34,734 nt of DNA from a virus (taxonomy: Duplodnaviria > Heunggongvirae > Uroviricota > Caudoviricetes). Below are positions 6,684-30,806 of the stretch, one piece after another (the stretch's first letter is position 1; each line of letters begins with the position of its first letter). The notes beneath the pieces are model-generated. The model saw only the letters and a program-made list of their open reading frames with translations, was not told where the DNA came from and ran no database searches. Where the stretch lies: IMG/VR virus record IMGVR_UViG_2531839454_000020, one strand, 5' to 3'. A program made the translations under genes and the position numbers.

Positions 6684-8591
6684 ATGAAACTAATTTCTAA
6701 TAAGGCCAAATTAAAAAAGATTCTCAGAAATGCAGCCAAATATATTACGCCACCGCCTAAACTCCTTCCATCGGAATGGTGCGAAGCTAATATGGTGCTG
6801 GTAGATGGTCCTCAAGCTGGGGATAAAGTTAAATTGCTGTCATTCCAGAAAGGTATGATTGATGCTCCTTTCCTTGAGAACAAGAAAAAGTATGTTCTGA
6901 TGACCAGTGCGCAGATCGGAAAGACTACCATCCTGAACGGCATCCTGTTTAACCAGATGGCTAACGATCCATGCAATATGATTATCGGACAATCAACCGC
7001 TAAAGAAATGTCTCAATATCTCGCTGGTAAGATCCGACCGTCTATCGAAGCATGTGATGCATTAAAAGACGTGGTTACAGACAAGAATGATCGCAATGCG
7101 GTTAACAACAATAACCAACTCCAGCTAAAAACGAATCACTTCCTGTACATGGTATCGCTTACCAGTCCATCAACCCTGCGCGGTAAGACTGCAAAGGTCG
7201 GACTACTAGACGAAATCGATGCTGCTACAGCCTCAGAAGAAGGTGATCCGGTGGCACTGGCTGCTAACCGTTTAACTACCTTTGGCGATGAAGGCCGATT
7301 AGTCGTATCCAGTACCCCGACCAGTAAGCTCGGAAGCATTAACCAGCAATGGTTATCAAGCGATATGCGTATGTTTTTTGTTCCGTGTCCTCATTGCGGG
7401 GAACACCAGGTGATCGAGTGGGAAAACGTTCAATTTGAATGGCGTAACATCGATGGTAAGAACTTACCCGATCCTGATACCGCTCGTTATATTTGCCCCC
7501 ACTGTAAGAACGCATGGACAGAAGGGGAACGAATCAGGGCAGTAGCGCAAGGCGAGTGGAGAGCAACCCGTGAAAGTGAAGTAGCAGGATTCTGGATTAG
7601 CCGTCTGTATTCACCTTTCAGCACGATCCGCGCTTGTGTGGTTGATTTTAGTCATGCGTGGCAATCCTTTGATTTACAATCATTTTATAACACCGTGTTA
7701 GGCAAGGTATACGATGATCAGGACACGGCAGTAGAAGCAAATGAACTGGAACAACTCAAAACAGATGTTTCTATCGAGAATATCCCTGATGACGTGATTT
7801 TCTTGTGCTCAGGAATTGACCAGCAATTGGATCGCGCAGAATCTACCATCTTAGGTGTAGCGAAAGATAAGGTTTACATTCTGGATCACCGTAGCTTTTA
7901 CGATCATAACTGTGAACGATACGAATCACCTGTATGGGATCGTCTGGTTAACTTCAAGAAAACCAAATTCTATAACGTTAATGGTGAACGTGTGCCAATG
8001 CTCGCCAGCTTCCTCGATACATCAAACGGTCGATTCACTCAAGCCGGATACCGTATTTGTGGTAAGTGGAAGAACCTACACGCTATTAAAGGTAGTTCAT
8101 CTGGTAATGCTCCAGTGATTCCGGTTAAACCTACCCGCACAGGTGGTCATGAATTGCTTATGCTGGGCGTTAACGTTGGTAAATCCGCTGTTCGTGAAAT
8201 GCTGGTTAGAAACCTGAAAGATAATCCTCATATTGGCTTAGAAATATCAGAAACCGTTCCTGATGATTATCTCGATCAGCTTTTGAGTGAATCCATCAAG
8301 CGTACTACTACTGGTGTTCGTTGGGTGAAAAATCCAGGTAGTACCCGAAACGAGGCTCTCGACTGTCTGGTTTATAGCTATGCTGCTTCTCGCTACGTCC
8401 TTTCAAAAATGTCATGGGATAAACTCATTGCAATGAAAGACAGCTTAAACAGCGTTAAAGAAGAACCCGTAAAAGCTCCTGAATCGCAATCTGACGAGCA
8501 AATCGAAGAAACTAAGCCAATCACACGACCGCAACGTCAAAACATCGCCAGACGCCCAAATAGAGGCCGTAGCTGGGTAACATCGTTCTAA
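6684..8591 (+). CDS. terminase large subunit (GpA-like), 635 aa
   Basis: First gene of the + structural block; Walker-A-like TSAQIGKTT; size and position typical of a large terminase; SD GAGGGT. Confidence 0.8.
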
Positions 8592-8597
8592 TAACTC

Positions 8598-8615
8598 GCC
8601 GTCCTTCGGGGCGGC
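8598..8615 (+). other. CUUCGG-type hairpin after the terminase gene (weak terminator)
   Basis: gccgtcc-ttcg-gggcggc; only a short T run follows. Confidence 0.35.
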
Positions 8616-8663
8616 TTACTCCTAAATATTGTTAATCCAATAACAATCAAATAAGGGGTAATT

Positions 8664-12866: not shown

Positions 12867-12895
12867 AGCCCTGCCTTAATGGTGGGGCTTTTTTG
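12867..12895 (+). terminator. intrinsic terminator downstream of the capsid gene
   Basis: agccctgcc/ggtggggct stem followed by tttttt; lies after the 44-codon in-frame extension, not directly after the capsid stop. Confidence 0.6.
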
Positions 12896-12925
12896 TATGT
12901 AAATACTCCATAAAGGGGGGTAACT

Positions 12926-13216
12926 ATGTTCAAATTATCAGAATCACAATTATCAAGAATGTTCCGAAGTGCTCCTGTATTTTCGGTGGAAGGTGGTAAA
13001 TCAATTCGTGCTTATCATGAAATTACTACTACCGACGAACAAGGGGTAATGACAGAAACAGAATTTCTATTCTGTCGTGAGGGAGACTTAAAGCAGGGTG
13101 ATATTGTCATTGTAGAAAATCAGCGTTTCAAAGTTCAATATATTAAGCGCAATGGTGATAATACTTGTGATTGCTTTATCACTTTAGCAGGGGGTACACA
13201 TGCTCGCTACCGTTAA
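12926..13216 (+). CDS. head-tail joining/neck protein (96 aa), hypothetical
   Basis: SD AAGGGGGG; position between capsid and tail genes. Confidence 0.4.
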   Translation: MFKLSESQLSRMFRSAPVFSVEGGKSIRAYHEITTTDEQGVMTETEFLFCREGDLKQGDIVIVENQRFKVQYIKRNGDNTCDCFITLAGGTHARYR

Positions 13217-19427: not shown

Positions 19428-19452
19428 AGCCATCCTTCGGGGTGGCTTTTTT
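19428..19452 (+). terminator. intrinsic terminator after the major tail gene
   Basis: agccatcc-ttcg-gggtggct followed by tttttt. Confidence 0.65.
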
Positions 19453-19501
19453 GTTTCCAATTCTAAATAAACATATCTAATTAACTTAAGAGGAAACAAG
19501 A

Positions 19502-19810
19502 ATGAATATTAATGAAATGCTGAAAGCTCTTTCTCCGAAACGCGAATCTCTGACCATCGGTGGATTCACTTTCTATGCTCGCCCTATGTCAGTAAAAGAA
19601 TTTAACGAACATGTTTTCAATACCGATAAAGATGACCGTGATGAACGTTCTATTCTTCGTTGTATTGAAGATGAAGACGGTAAACCAGTATTTGAATCTA
19701 TGGAACAAGTTAAGGCACTGTATACTAACGTCCGCAGTGAATTAATCGGTTTGGTTGCTCAAGCGTCATTGATGCAAGATCCGGCAGTAATTGAAAACGA
19801 GGTAAAGTAA
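19502..19810 (+). CDS. tail assembly chaperone (lambda G-like), 102 aa
   Basis: Position before the tape measure; SD AAGAGGAAA. Confidence 0.55.
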   Translation: MNINEMLKALSPKRESLTIGGFTFYARPMSVKEFNEHVFNTDKDDRDERSILRCIEDEDGKPVFESMEQVKALYTNVRSELIGLVAQASLMQDPAVIENEVK

Positions 19811-20192: not shown

Positions 20193-22622
20193 ATGACAAA
20201 ACATATAGTAACAATAGAAGGGGATAATAAAGGGCTAAAGAGAAGTACCAATGAAGCCGCCGACCTTCTCGATAGTTTGTCTGAAAAGGCAAGTAATATT
20301 GATTTTGGTGGTGGCTTATCTGGTCTGACTGGATCTCTTCGTGGGATCGCTGGCTCTGCTGGTTTGGCTGCTGGTGGTATTGGCTTAGTTGCGACCGCAG
20401 TGGTTGCAGCCGCTAAAGCTGGTGCGGAATACGTTAAACAGTATTCAGAAGTATCTAAGGCGACCGGACTCTCGATTGAATCCCTTCAAAGACTAGAAAA
20501 GGAATTTTCTGGCACTGGCTTAACAGTTGAAAAATTCGGTGATATCAACAAAGACACCTTAGATAAAATGGGTGATGCATGGGCTAACGGTGGCGGTATT
20601 GCCGATGACTTAGAATCGGTTGGCCTTAAGTTAGAAAACTATGCTCACTTCATGACTGATCCGCAAGGTGGTATGAAAGCGGCGATCCAAGTGTTCTATG
20701 ACATGAAGAAAGCCGGAAAATCAATGGCTGAAATCAAGTTCATGATGGAATCTTTAGCCAGTGATTCAAGCCATATGACCAGCCAGCTTGAGAAATATAA
20801 TACTGCTCAAGAGGCGATGATCGCTATTCAGAATCAATCTGTTAACGTCACCGAAGAAAACGCTAAAAAATATGATAAATTTTCTCAAAATATCAATAAG
20901 CTGGAAAATAACCTGAAAGGTGTCGGTATGACCATTTCTGGTCCGCTGGTTGATAGTTTAAACTGGTTATTTGACTGGTTTAATATTGATTGGGAAAAGA
21001 GTTCTCTATTCAGGGCATTAGATCGACTGAATAAAGAAGGCAAGACCGCAACTGGCGGTATTCTTAACGCCAACCATAAAGACGCTCAAAAAATTATTGA
21101 CAAGTACAATAAAGAAAAGCGTTGGAATAATCTGGCAGATTGGGAAAAGGCCGCGATCCGTGGTGCTGGTGTCGATCCTCGTACTGCTGGCTTTGATGTT
21201 GAAGGATTTAAGAAACGTTTTGGTGATTCTTATAAGAAAAATGGCTCTCTGATTGTTGTCGATAACGGGGAACATCTGACACGCAAGGCAGATCCTAACA
21301 CTGATTTGACTATACCAAATAAACCAGTAAGACCAGAATCATTGGGTAAATCTGGCAACGAGAAGAAAGCCGAAGAAGAAGCACGCAAGAAAGCGGAAGA
21401 GGCAGCTAAAAAGGCTAAGGAAGCCGCAGAAAAAGCACAGAAAGAACGCGAGGACGCAATCAAGCGACTGAATGCACTTGATGTTAAATTGCAAGGGCAG
21501 GTTGCCGCGTCTATTGCTTCTCAAAACAAGCAGTTAGAAGCCAGTTTGAAAGATTTGGATACTGCTTTAGCTCTGGGCTTAATCTCTCAGGAAGACGCAG
21601 CCGCGAAACGCCAGGCGCTAATCGATCAGAATACTGAAAACGTATACAAAATGGTCTTAGGTGCTGATCCGGTTGATGCTCTGAATGCTTTAACACAATT
21701 GCAACAAATCAGGGACAACGAGTTAGAAAGCCATAAACGGTTACTTGATGGTAAGGCTATCTCCTACGAAGAATATATGCGTCGTGTGAATGATACCGAA
21801 CAAAGTTATTCACAGATTGAAGATTCTTTGCATGGAATGGATGGTTTTAAAACCAATCAATTGACCAATAGCTTAGACTATCAGGACTCAAATAATCCGT
21901 TTGCTAAATTTAATGCAATCGATAAAGAGAAATCGGATGCTGAACAAGATTATAAGACCGATAAACTCAAGATTGATGGGATCACCGATCCGGCTAAACG
22001 GATGGAAGAATTAGAAAAACTCAATGAAAACCATCAAAAACGAATGGCTGCAATTGAGAAGAAATATGCTGATGCTCGCCAGTCAATAGCCGATGATATG
22101 TACGGCGGTTTTGCTGCTGCAATGACTCTCTTCGGGCAGGAAAACACTAAAGCTATGCAGATGGCTTTCAATGCTCATAAAGCATTCTCTATCGGACAAG
22201 CGACGGTGAACATGTGGACGGCTGCTACCGATGCATGGAACGATCCGACCAACGTCACCACAGGTCAAAAAATCGCGGCTGCTGCATTGGCTGTTTCTCA
22301 GAACATGGGGAACATCGCAAACATCAAGTCTACTAACGTTAGCGGTATGGCTCATGATGGTATTGATAACATCCCTCGTGAGGGTACATGGTTGCTTGAT
22401 AAGGGTGAACGAGTAGTTGATCAGCGTACTAACGGTGATTTGAAAGACTTCCTTGCTGCTCAAAAATCAGGTGGGGGTAACTCTCAGCCGATTGAAGTTA
22501 ATGCGCCTTTGAACATTAACGGCAACGTTAATAGCTCAGACAAGATGGTCATGGATGCTATCAAACGTCACGCTAAGTTTGTTGCTCAGGCGATAGAAGA
22601 CGTTCAGCGTCGTAAGATGTAA
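20193..22622 (+). CDS. tape measure protein (809 aa)
   Basis: Long protein after the chaperone pair; Gly/Ala-rich N-terminal segment and K/E/A coiled-coil stretches (EEEARKKAEEAAKKAKEAAEKAQKE). Confidence 0.75.
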   Translation: MTKHIVTIEGDNKGLKRSTNEAADLLDSLSEKASNIDFGGGLSGLTGSLRGIAGSAGLAAGGIGLVATAVVAAAKAGAEYVKQYSEVSKATGLSIESLQRLEKEFSGTGLTVEKFGDINKDTLDKMGDAWANGGGIADDLESVGLKLENYAHFMTDPQGGMKAAIQVFYDMKKAGKSMAEIKFMMESLASDSSHMTSQLEKYNTAQEAMIAIQNQSVNVTEENAKKYDKFSQNINKLENNLKGVGMTISGPLVDSLNWLFDWFNIDWEKSSLFRALDRLNKEGKTATGGILNANHKDAQKIIDKYNKEKRWNNLADWEKAAIRGAGVDPRTAGFDVEGFKKRFGDSYKKNGSLIVVDNGEHLTRKADPNTDLTIPNKPVRPESLGKSGNEKKAEEEARKKAEEAAKKAKEAAEKAQKEREDAIKRLNALDVKLQGQVAASIASQNKQLEASLKDLDTALALGLISQEDAAAKRQALIDQNTENVYKMVLGADPVDALNALTQLQQIRDNELESHKRLLDGKAISYEEYMRRVNDTEQSYSQIEDSLHGMDGFKTNQLTNSLDYQDSNNPFAKFNAIDKEKSDAEQDYKTDKLKIDGITDPAKRMEELEKLNENHQKRMAAIEKKYADARQSIADDMYGGFAAAMTLFGQENTKAMQMAFNAHKAFSIGQATVNMWTAATDAWNDPTNVTTGQKIAAAALAVSQNMGNIANIKSTNVSGMAHDGIDNIPREGTWLLDKGERVVDQRTNGDLKDFLAAQKSGGGNSQPIEVNAPLNINGNVNSSDKMVMDAIKRHAKFVAQAIEDVQRRKM

Positions 22623-22627
22623 TTAAA

Positions 22628-22671
22628 AGCCCCCATAGTGATAAATAATCATAAAACTATGGGGGCTTTTC
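22628..22671 (+). promoter_or_regulatory. long hairpin whose 3' arm contains the SD of the next gene
   Basis: agcccccatagt ... actatgggggct, 12-bp stem and 17-nt loop containing ATAAATA; the GGGGG of the 3' arm lies 9 nt upstream of the ATG at 22673. Confidence 0.5.
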
Positions 22672-22672
22672 T

Positions 22673-23233
22673 ATGTTCAAATCCAAGAATATTAAAATCA
22701 CAGATTTTACTCTTAAATCAAAACAGCCTTTCTTCAAGGCGCAATCTATTTCTGGTAAGTTCCAGCGTCGCTTTACTGGTATTCATTTTTATGAAGCAGA
22801 ATTTACAGCTAATTTCATGGCTCAGGATATTAACGAAGTAAAAGAATTTGTAGCACGTCACCTTTTTGGTCGTCCTTTTAGTGTGCCACTGTCTTACTTT
22901 TCAAAATATACAGGCGATGTACGCCAGATGGTAACGGCTGCTGCTGGTACTGCTCGCGGTGGGCGTAAGGTAAGACTCTCCAACTTCACCGGAACACTGA
23001 AAGCGGGAACTATCATCCAGTTTGAGAACCACAAGAAAATCTACACGATCACCGAAGATGTGAAATCAGGTGGTGAAATGAAACTCTTCCCTAACTTGCG
23101 TCAAAACGTCCTGGCTGGTGAGGTGATCAAGTATCAGAACGTAGAAGGTGAATTTGTTCTCAAAACTGAAAATATCGATTGGAAGATCGCCCAGATTGGC
23201 AAGATGAAATTCGAATTAGTGGAGAATGTATAA
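22673..23233 (+). CDS. minor tail protein (lambda M-like by position), 186 aa
   Basis: First ORF after the tape measure; stop overlaps next start (TAATG). Confidence 0.45.
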   Translation: MFKSKNIKITDFTLKSKQPFFKAQSISGKFQRRFTGIHFYEAEFTANFMAQDINEVKEFVARHLFGRPFSVPLSYFSKYTGDVRQMVTAAAGTARGGRKVRLSNFTGTLKAGTIIQFENHKKIYTITEDVKSGGEMKLFPNLRQNVLAGEVIKYQNVEGEFVLKTENIDWKIAQIGKMKFELVENV

Positions 23234-23886: not shown

Positions 23887-23932
23887 TCCCTTCTCCCTAA
23901 GCCTAGTAAATAACAGCATGGAGGTATTCAAC

Positions 23933-29356: not shown

Positions 29357-29366
29357 TCCATAAATA

Positions 29367-29388
29367 CCCTCATAGAAACTTATGGGGG
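29367..29388 (+). promoter_or_regulatory. hairpin whose 3' arm contains the SD of 29395
   Basis: ccctcata-gaaact-tatggggg; ATAAATA immediately upstream (29360..29366). Confidence 0.45.
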
Positions 29389-29394
29389 TATAAC

Positions 29395-29742
29395 ATGGCT
29401 AAAAATATTTTCACTGAATTTCCTACTTATCCGGTCGACCAGCTTTCCGGTATTTTTATCAATGGCATTAGCCCAGAATCAATGACCTATGATTTTGAGG
29501 CGAAGAGAGTCCAACATAAACAATTCAAGCAGATGATCCGCGATGATGGTAACGGGCTAGTGTTTTGTGTTGCGACACTCGCTAAACGTCCTAAGTATCG
29601 CTTTCGTGTAGGGCAGGAGATTGATGTAGTTAATCCTTACAACTTCAATTGTATTGGCGATACACGCGCGGTGTGTGTAGGGACAACTAACTATTATATC
29701 AAGGGACTTAGATTTACCGGCTATCTTATGCAATATATCTAA
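29395..29742 (+). CDS. hypothetical protein (115 aa)
   Basis: ORF with GGGGGT SD. Confidence 0.5.
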   Translation: MAKNIFTEFPTYPVDQLSGIFINGISPESMTYDFEAKRVQHKQFKQMIRDDGNGLVFCVATLAKRPKYRFRVGQEIDVVNPYNFNCIGDTRAVCVGTTNYYIKGLRFTGYLMQYI

Positions 29743-30469: not shown

Positions 30470-30515
30470 TTCTTATAAATAGTAGTGAATATTATTTTAT
30501 TGAGGATTCACTACT
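30451..30515 (+). promoter_or_regulatory. conserved promoter-like element CCAAAA-N17-TATAAATA-GTAGTGAA plus 10-bp inverted repeat enclosing the SD (copy 2 of 2)
   Basis: CCAAAA 30451..30456, TATAAATA 30474..30481, AGTAGTGAAT 30481..30490 pairing with ATTCACTACT 30506..30515; SD TGAGGA in the loop; ATG at 30516. Confidence 0.45.
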
Positions 30516-30806
30516 ATGAATACTACTTTAGCAAAGGATATCGAATTTACCGCAAAAAGCAAACGTGCGACCCCTCCGGTCGAATATGAAATCAGAATCA
30601 TTAAAGTTTGTCAAGCGCATGGATGGTTATACAGTGGTTTTGTGCTTCCTGTAAAGAAACCATTCCAGAACACCAAAGTTTGCATAGAAGTTAACGGAAA
30701 GGTTAAAACGCCATGTATTAGTCATGTTCTAACTGGTCAGTTTACTGGCAAAGATAGAGTATCACCGCCTAAGAAGAAGTTTAGATTTACCGAAGAAGAA
30801 CACTAA
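30516..30806 (+). CDS. hypothetical protein (96 aa)
   Basis: ORF directly after the conserved element. Confidence 0.5.
   Translation: MNTTLAKDIEFTAKSKRATPPVEYEIRIIKVCQAHGWLYSGFVLPVKKPFQNTKVCIEVNGKVKTPCISHVLTGQFTGKDRVSPPKKKFRFTEEEH

Follow-up and report, generated by a model that had tools for sequence, protein, structure and literature searches.

The prophage element and its genes

The window, by which we mean the whole stretch of 34,734 nucleotides that was analysed, represents a prophage element of ∼38 kb (41.6% GC) from E. coli. Among 5426 complete E. coli genomes, 56 had the locus, a 99% identical copy being that of strain ETEC1703 (NZ_CP122923.1). The element is inserted in ycdX or beside hicB/ydcR, and the exact proteins of the window are found as E. 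coli and Salmonella entries in NCBI. Megablast revealed no close relative of the region among sequenced phages. At the protein level the sole relative among them was the record of Escherichia phage DCP80 (PQ671644.1; L128, L129, L166), with the first 23 kb of which, a siphovirus-like module, the structural module is collinear; literature searches on DCP80 or on the ycdX prophage returned nothing relevant. The neighbouring genes encode tape-measure, distal tail and tail-tip proteins, an endolysin, a lambda gpA-like large terminase, a portal protein, a protease-capsid fusion and a serine recombinase, and the gene that starts at 22673 is that of the distal tail protein. The 115-aa downstream protein was considered as a candidate holin and rejected since it has no hydrophobic segment. 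Other copies of the element carry a GIY-YIG nuclease and a DEAD/DEAH helicase as cargo between endolysin and recombinase, and in ETEC1703 (L070 14643-15413) a NUMOD3-domain (homing-endonuclease-like) gene is inserted in a gap that in the window (23887-23932) holds a TAAATA box. Free-standing endonuclease genes are typical of T4-like phages.

Across the whole element (the window plus L070 2346-40276) we could recognise neither replication genes nor a repressor of the CI/Cro type nor a small terminase, and the sole regulator identified was a Rha/Ant-like protein (4738-5580). A 201-aa protein encoded on the minus strand (5991-6596), divergent from the terminase gene, shows 50-91% identity across E. 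coli, Salmonella and Proteus. Its AlphaFold model (pLDDT 72) consists of two helix-helix-helix-plus-beta-hairpin repeats and returned no significant PDB match and nothing sigma-like. The protein may be a DNA-binding protein or an analogue of the small terminase. We also noted a region of 1.5 kb (2200-3746, corresponding to L070 35746-37133) that has no long ORF and no RefSeq annotation. Within it lie strong promoters resembling those of sigma-70 (TTGACA-17-TATACT at 2856-2828 of the minus strand), TATAAATA boxes in either orientation (at 2191, 2557, 2757 and 3694) and, at 2235-2264, a terminator which together with a TAAATACTCC box at 2193 could yield an RNA of ∼70 nt. This region may be a regulatory or immunity region, or a source of small RNA.

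Predicted hairpins around two Shine-Dalgarno sequences

The tape-measure gene ends with a TAA at 22620-22622, and a stem (site 1) begins 3 nt later and ends 2 nt before the ATG of the distal tail gene at 22673. In the minimum free energy structure the 5' arm AAAAGCCCCCATAGT (22625-22639, plus strand) pairs with the 3' arm ACTATGGGGGCTTTT (22656-22670). The former contains the anti-Shine-Dalgarno (anti-SD) segment CCCCC (22630-22634), the latter the Shine-Dalgarno sequence (SD) GGGGG (22661-22665) and a U tract, and the 16-nt loop between them (22640-22655) holds ATAAATA (22641-22647). The stem comprises 15 bp with a stability of -24.7 kcal/mol (z -6.3), which none of 200 dinucleotide shuffles reached, and includes a GC-rich core of 10 bp (-19.9 kcal/mol).

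A second hairpin on the plus strand (site 2) precedes the ATG at 29395. Here the arms ATACCCTCATAG (29364-29375) and TTATGGGGGTAT (29380-29391) enclose a loop of AAAC, and the SD (29384-29388) again lies in the 3' arm. Its 12-bp stem (-14.3 kcal/mol, z -4.2) was likewise matched by none of 200 dinucleotide shuffles. The stop codon of the upstream gene lies 8 nt before the stem, and the ATAAATA box (29360-29366) is directly 5' of it, the last three bases of the box forming the stem base. A first-pass annotation of this DNA had described both hairpins with the SD in the 3' arm. Both are indeed present and, on folding, far more stable than shuffled sequence; the coordinates given then were a few bases too narrow at either site, but the description was otherwise correct save that ATAAATA, said to lie in or just before the loop, does so at site 1 and is placed 5' of the stem, not in the loop, at site 2.

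Reading these 3' arms as SD is justified, because GGGGG or AAGGGGGTAA is the usual SD of the late genes of this phage and sites of the AAGGGGGTAA type stand before most of them. The exact 8-mer TATGGGGG occurs on the plus strand only at the two SDs of sites 1 and 2. What sets these two apart is the cost of opening the SD in a long RNA, which was 22.3 kcal/mol at 22673 and 18.6 kcal/mol at 29395, as against at most 10.6 kcal/mol at the other 25 late genes. Rfam gave no match in the whole window on either strand at gathering thresholds. We considered an RNA thermometer and rejected it, since melting near 37-42 °C is not to be expected of stems as stable as these (-14 to -25 kcal/mol).

A third copy and weaker locks

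We identified a third homologous copy, missed by the earlier annotation, in the leader of the large terminase gene (6649-6683). This leader, AATAAATACCTTCATATTTCGTAATGAGGGTAATTAC-ATG (6647-6686, plus strand), contains TAAATA (6649-6654) followed by a stem of TACCTTCAT with ATGAGGGTA (6653-6661 with 6670-6678; z -3.4) that encloses the SD GAGGG (6672-6676) ahead of the ATG at 6684. This cassette and that of site 2 are homologous, the cores aligning without gaps and forming the same stem, here with a U.G wobble, and opening the SD of the terminase leader in a long RNA costs 8.2 kcal/mol. Upstream of it an early rightward unit ends at a terminator-like site (5589-5609). Both leaders also contain a mini-ORF that has no SD of its own: ATG GGG GTA TAA in the 3' arm of site 2 (29382-29393), which ends 1 nt before the ATG at 29395, and ATG AGG GTA ATT ACA TGA (6670-6687), which overlaps the terminase ATG. 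These are probably incidental to the CATA/TATG palindrome.

Weaker locks were found at three further gene starts on the plus strand. Before the ATG at 19502, TTGTTTCC pairs with GGAAACAA (19451-19458 with 19492-19499; z -2.4) in the topology of site 1, with TAAATA (19464-19469) in the loop. A TATAAATA box with the hairpin GTAGTGAAT / ATTCACTAC immediately behind it (30476-30515) abuts the ATG at 30516, and a mini-hairpin of the form TAAATA-CTCC-ATAAA-GGGGGGTA (12900-12925), just after a terminator at 12867-12889, precedes the ATG at 12926. The cost of opening the SD fell in a short RNA from 8.3 to 2.1, from 10.6 to 5.5 and from 6.6 to 2.3 kcal/mol, respectively. At many other gene starts TAAATA is immediately followed by a hairpin that does not include the SD (8592-8663, 3696-3745, 5963-5997 on the minus strand, 4662-4737), as in TAAATA-TTGTTAATCCAATAACAA and TAAATA-(A/G)(T/A)AGTGAA...TTCACT. 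One extension, TAAATANNAGTGAA, is common to the boxes at 646, 3696, 30476 and, on the minus strand, 5997.

Conservation of the hairpins

For site 1 we collected 14 distinct versions from IMG/VR, metagenomes and E. coli genomes. A search for further variants by the exact loop pattern returned the same 33 IMG/VR contigs, and a scan of GTDB genomes returned one contig. In the alignment of the 14 variants 98% of the cells were paired and the 10-bp core was never broken; losses were occasional and limited to the basal A-U pairs and the outer G-C pair. The ATAAATA box was invariant, with variation in the adjacent loop bases. One pair changes from C-G to U.G, and in L066 and L114 a double change from C-G to U-A turns the SD into the canonical GGAGG (CCTCC/GGAGG). 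Covariation at site 1 is nevertheless thin, consisting of this one double change, and 35 of 500 shuffles reached the observed score.

Site 2 hardly varies, even in copies whose flanking genes show 82% identity or have been replaced outright, and its ATAAATA is invariant in the relatives. One variant (L009/L051) carries GGAGG here; we rejected it as a compensatory change, because in register it gives a C.A mismatch, and the stability falls from -15.3 to -11.2 kcal/mol. The terminase leader is near-invariant even where the N-terminus of the terminase is just 54% identical. In one variant (L133) two bases of its 5' arm are changed (CCTTC to CTCTC), which moves the wobble and keeps every pair.

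More distant sequences were informative as well. Five leaders of distal-tail-protein homologues with 42-51% identity, which are unrelated in sequence and make up five sequence families, hold GAGG in the 3' arm of a long stem (z -2.8 to -11.1) and have TAAATA within the 5' arm, downstream of the anti-SD. In one of them, AACGCCTCGCTAAATAAG / CTTATTTAGCGAGGCGTT, the predicted stability was -29.7 kcal/mol (z -11.1). No SD lock was seen in homologues at ∼40% identity or in the DCP80 module. The distant homologues are stronger evidence of conservation than covariation within the E. coli population.

In a set of distant relatives (L034-L038, L065, L115-L123; ∼7950-8000 in L038) the distal-tail gene is divergent from the lysozyme gene, 48 nt away, and one palindrome supplies a locked SD and a TAAATA box for both genes. 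These loci resemble rearranged prophages beside a serine recombinase, and an inversion between two SD-locking hairpins could be the origin of the divergent arrangement. Mosaic junctions between prophage variants (14475, 30476, 8623 and 12900 as compared with L066-L070) start exactly at TAAATA or just upstream of it, which suggests that units of box, leader and gene are exchanged as cassettes.

A perfect 18-bp palindrome between divergent genes, as seen in distant relatives, and mosaic junctions that adjoin the cassettes, are what one might expect of elements that act at the level of DNA, either as operators for a dimeric regulator or as hot spots of recombination or inversion. We regard this as highly improbable nonetheless. 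Copies within a single genome differ in the spacing of their arms (4 to 18 nt); all wobbles are U.G when read as mRNA, the only sense in which such wobbles are tolerated; and what the compensatory change at site 1 keeps is the pairing and not the fixed sequence of a half-site.

There is thus good support for an mRNA hairpin, stable and conserved, that sequesters the SD, so that some form of translational control of the downstream genes is the natural reading. The interpretation given in the first-pass annotation is partly supported as a whole; in its general form, translational control by occlusion of the SD, it is supported by folding energies, by wobble and compensatory changes of the RNA type and by the same architecture in homologues of unrelated sequence.

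Terminator-like features

Site 1 had also been likened to a terminator after the tape-measure gene, and to this extent the comparison is plausible: a GC-rich stem follows the stop codon and is itself followed by UUUU(U)C. This run of U is short, however, and the loop of 16-18 nt is long, which is why the terminator scan left site 1 unlisted; moreover, the distant homologues keep the SD lock with no U tract at all. Site 1 may also terminate the tape-measure transcript or stabilise its 3' end.

A broader form of this idea would make all of the hairpins chiefly elements of transcript ends, with site 1 as a terminator or 3' stabiliser and with site 2 and the terminase copy as hairpins that lend stability at a 5' or 3' end. 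That they overlap the SD would then be a by-product of tight spacing and of a G-run serving as GC-rich arm. The 10-bp GC-rich core of site 1 is flanked by an A tract and by a UUUU/UUUUU tract that all E. coli variants keep, several classical terminators stand after highly expressed late genes at 12867, 19428 and 28116, and at the very junction of site 1 the DCP80 record has a GGGGC-UUCG-GCCCC hairpin with the SD outside it, all of which would agree with such a role. The U tract is missing at site 2 and in the terminase leader, however, and the pairing of anti-SD with SD is itself conserved, including the compensatory CCTCC/GGAGG. Site 1 is the sole copy that would suit a role purely as terminator or stabiliser, and even there the loop is long; we consider this explanation improbable.

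The TAAATA box

TAAATA was the most over-represented hexamer in the late intergenic gaps (12 observed as against 2.7 expected, a count reached in none of 1000 dinucleotide shuffles), where its reverse complement occurred once, and it was present in 11 of the 14 late gaps of at least 38 nt. The overall counts of ATAAATA and TAAATA in the window were not above chance, the enrichment being confined to intergenic, co-oriented placement. Half of the TAAATA copies precede a gene of the same orientation by 15-80 nt, the top share among the permutations of A4T2, and this placement was seen in distant loci too. TAAATA is thus a strand-specific motif upstream of genes throughout the genome, which the first-pass annotation had not noticed. 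The box is invariant at 13 sites in five divergent copies, among them mosaic junctions that start exactly at the box.

Several observations bear on how such a box might be read. TAAATA follows four terminator-like hairpins, which leave no room there for a -35 element. In the divergent terminase region (6597-6683) the box occurs in both orientations, and no promoter of the sigma-70 type was detected there. From its sequence, TAAATA is not usable as a sigma-70 -10 element; it does not have the T at -7 that E. coli sigma-70 requires. The full TATAAATA is present in only 6 of 30 boxes. At three sites C-rich sequence follows the box, a position at which T4 late promoters are AT-rich (PMC2988020). 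Leaders with a box were locked harder than those without (median 8.2 as against 5.0 kcal/mol; Mann-Whitney p 0.023). The ATAAATA that the first-pass annotation had noted as a shared feature appears to be the key to the arrangement, since the box is so placed that a transcript started just downstream of it would not carry the anti-SD arm. TAAATA is a putative promoter, and the position of its start site is a predicted one.

Search for a late transcription factor

The DCP80 module has perfect TATAAATA boxes, mostly after terminators, at orthologous junctions, namely on either side of the tail-tube gene, behind the capsid gene and ahead of the DUF6950 gene. The record is filed as a 141-kb member of the Tevenvirinae. 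With its three genes for rIIA, two for primase and pieces of gp23, gp18 and gp37 it is probably a chimeric or scrambled assembly. We dropped the notion that the module is part of a T4-like genome on account of this annotation. Since the record is scrambled, it is no proof that T4 machinery runs the module and shows only that a relative carries such boxes. The co-assembly of a TATAAATA-bearing module with T4-like DNA is compatible with T4-dependence but proves nothing. No relative of the DCP80 homologue was found in IMG/VR, and searches of the element with PHROGs, Pfam, PDB sequences and phmmer (using gp55 and gp33 of DCP80) revealed no gp55-, gp33- or sigma-like protein.

The boxes might be true T4-type late promoters, through which the virion and lysis genes would be switched on by a new promoter-specificity factor that we did not recognise or by the late-transcription machinery of an infecting T4-like phage. 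We regard this as distinctly improbable. On this reading the SD locks would hold the genes silent against any host-driven read-through in the lysogen and, were a T4-like phage to supply the machinery, the element would be a helper-dependent satellite or parasite of T4-like phages.

Favoured mechanism and its alternatives

The explanation that we favour, tentatively and as a serious possibility rather than a probable one, is that the hairpins are transcript-selective translational locks tied to a local start at TAAATA. In the mRNA leader a C-rich anti-SD segment would pair with the G-rich SD of the next gene. An RNA reading through from upstream would carry the whole hairpin and would permit no initiation at the locked gene, whereas an RNA started ∼6 nt after TAAATA would be free of the anti-SD, its SD would be accessible and it would be translated. 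Site 1 would be a compacted version of this design, with the box in the loop of the hairpin that follows the tape-measure stop and the U tract on the 3' side. We infer that the locked RNAs would not be translated.

The position of the anti-SD is as this reading would have it. At site 1, before 19502 and in all distant homologues it lies upstream of the box, and elsewhere it fills the exact gap to the expected start (TAAATA-CCCTC-A, TAAATA-CCTTC-A, TAAATA-CTCC-A). In silico, an RNA beginning 6 nt after TAAATA had SD opening costs of 1.8, 5.4 and 3.5 kcal/mol at site 1, site 2 and the terminase leader, respectively; in an RNA beginning at TAAATA itself the SD was still locked at site 2 and in the terminase leader (15.1 and 9.7 kcal/mol).

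The latter values also bear on the proposal that the cassettes are RNA processing sites, cut by RNase III on the long stem or by RNase E in the AU-rich UAAAUA, so that the cistrons would be split apart and the mRNA of the downstream gene activated or stabilised. A cut within UAAAUA would leave the SD locked at those same two sites, and in the distant homologues UAAAUA lies inside the stem and is not single-stranded. The recurrence of UAAAUA directly before a hairpin at many gene starts would suit this proposal, and the stems of site 1 and of the L038 type (18 bp) approach the length of an RNase III substrate, but those of site 2 (12 bp) and the terminase leader (9 bp) are too short for RNase III. 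Processing by RNase is in our view very unlikely and, like a DNA operator, fits the data less well.

A more substantial alternative, though still an unlikely one, dispenses with the local promoter altogether and invokes constitutive translational attenuation or coupling, with TAAATA as an AU-rich ribosome/S1 standby element or as unrelated. Its attraction is that it needs no unknown transcription factor. In the attenuation version the hairpins would set a low initiation rate for low-copy products, and terminase and distal tail protein, which the locked genes encode, are of this kind; but a lock of -20 kcal/mol, if unrelieved, would nearly abolish a tail protein that is presumably essential. 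In the coupling version a ribosome finishing the upstream gene would melt the 5' arm, as in E. coli atpHA or the MS2 coat-replicase junction. The leading edge of a terminating ribosome lies ∼15 nt beyond the P-site codon. At site 1, where the tape-measure stop ends 2 nt before the stem base, such a ribosome would open ∼8 of the 15 pairs, and the 6-7 pairs left over, closing a long loop, would be marginal. At site 2, by contrast, with the stop 8 nt before the stem, it would reach just 2-3 A-U pairs, and the anti-SD would be out of its reach. The terminase leader has no co-directional upstream ORF, and the locked gene of the distant homologues, divergent from its neighbour 48 nt away, has no upstream ORF either. 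The idea of a standby site meets the further difficulty that TAAATA is base-paired, not single-stranded, in the distant homologues and in one variant (L139).

Returning to the transcript-selective lock, what it might be for is a separate matter. Co-directional upstream genes exist for sites 1 and 2, where the read-through and the local transcript would both be late, so that the temporal logic of T4 is not directly transferable. Locks occur in the integrated lineage and are absent from the DCP80 module. It is a speculation of ours that they keep the terminase, distal tail and endolysin-adjacent genes silent against read-through in the lysogen. Hairpins that sequester an SD are by themselves ordinary textbook elements. 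Of more interest is that a regular cassette of box, hairpin and SD organises a whole uncharacterised family of prophages found in E. coli, Salmonella and Proteus. Were the box a promoter, this prophage would use the trick of T4, by which only locally initiated RNA is translated, with a box of a type that neither sigma-70 nor any known factor should read, which would imply either a new late-transcription factor or dependence on T4-like phages.

Comparison with known systems

Short units of a promoter and a hairpin are known from the PeSL (promoter-early plus stem-loop) cassettes of T4-type phages. Like the cassettes described here they stand before individual genes and coincide with mosaic junctions, but the promoters of PeSLs are early ones read by sigma-70, and locking of the SD is not known from these cassettes. 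Rho-independent terminators share with site 1 a GC-rich stem that follows a stop codon and is itself followed by a U tract, and the genome has terminator-then-TAAATA cassettes after the capsid, tail-tube and tail-tip genes; site 1 differs from them in its loop of 16-18 nt and in having only 4-5 U, and site 2 and the terminase copy differ in having no U tract, while the pairing of the SD is conserved. The coupling hairpins of atpHA and MS2 resemble ours in that the downstream SD is base-paired, and the 5' arm of site 1 begins 3 nt past the upstream stop codon; the terminase copy and the distant homologues, however, have no upstream cistron, and the anti-SD of site 2 lies beyond the reach of the ribosome.

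The closest parallel is with T4 itself. In e, soc, 49, I-TevI/II/III and segB of T4, and in mobE of Aeh1, a late promoter lies in or near the 5' strand of a hairpin, its transcripts, which are without that strand, can be translated, and the read-through RNA is predicted to be silent (PMC3014915, PMC2988022). A T4 late promoter has no -35 element and is simply a TATA box of 8 bp, set about one turn of the helix before the start (PMC2988020). In both systems the SD or AUG is held in the 3' strand of a stable helix and a TATA-type box lies in or beside the DNA for the 5' strand, the box being TAAATA here and TATAAATA in T4. The differences are that the host of the cassettes here is an integrated siphovirus-like prophage of ∼38 kb and not a lytic phage of the T4 type, that gp55 and gp33 were not found by PHROGs, Pfam or phmmer and the box is a relaxed 6- or 7-mer, and that at site 1 the putative box lies in a hairpin loop, the hairpin being terminator-like. 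Late transcription might here be supplied by a helper phage or by a factor that has diverged beyond detection. Seen against these systems, the kind of control is familiar, and it is the setting, an uncharacterised family of prophages, that is new.
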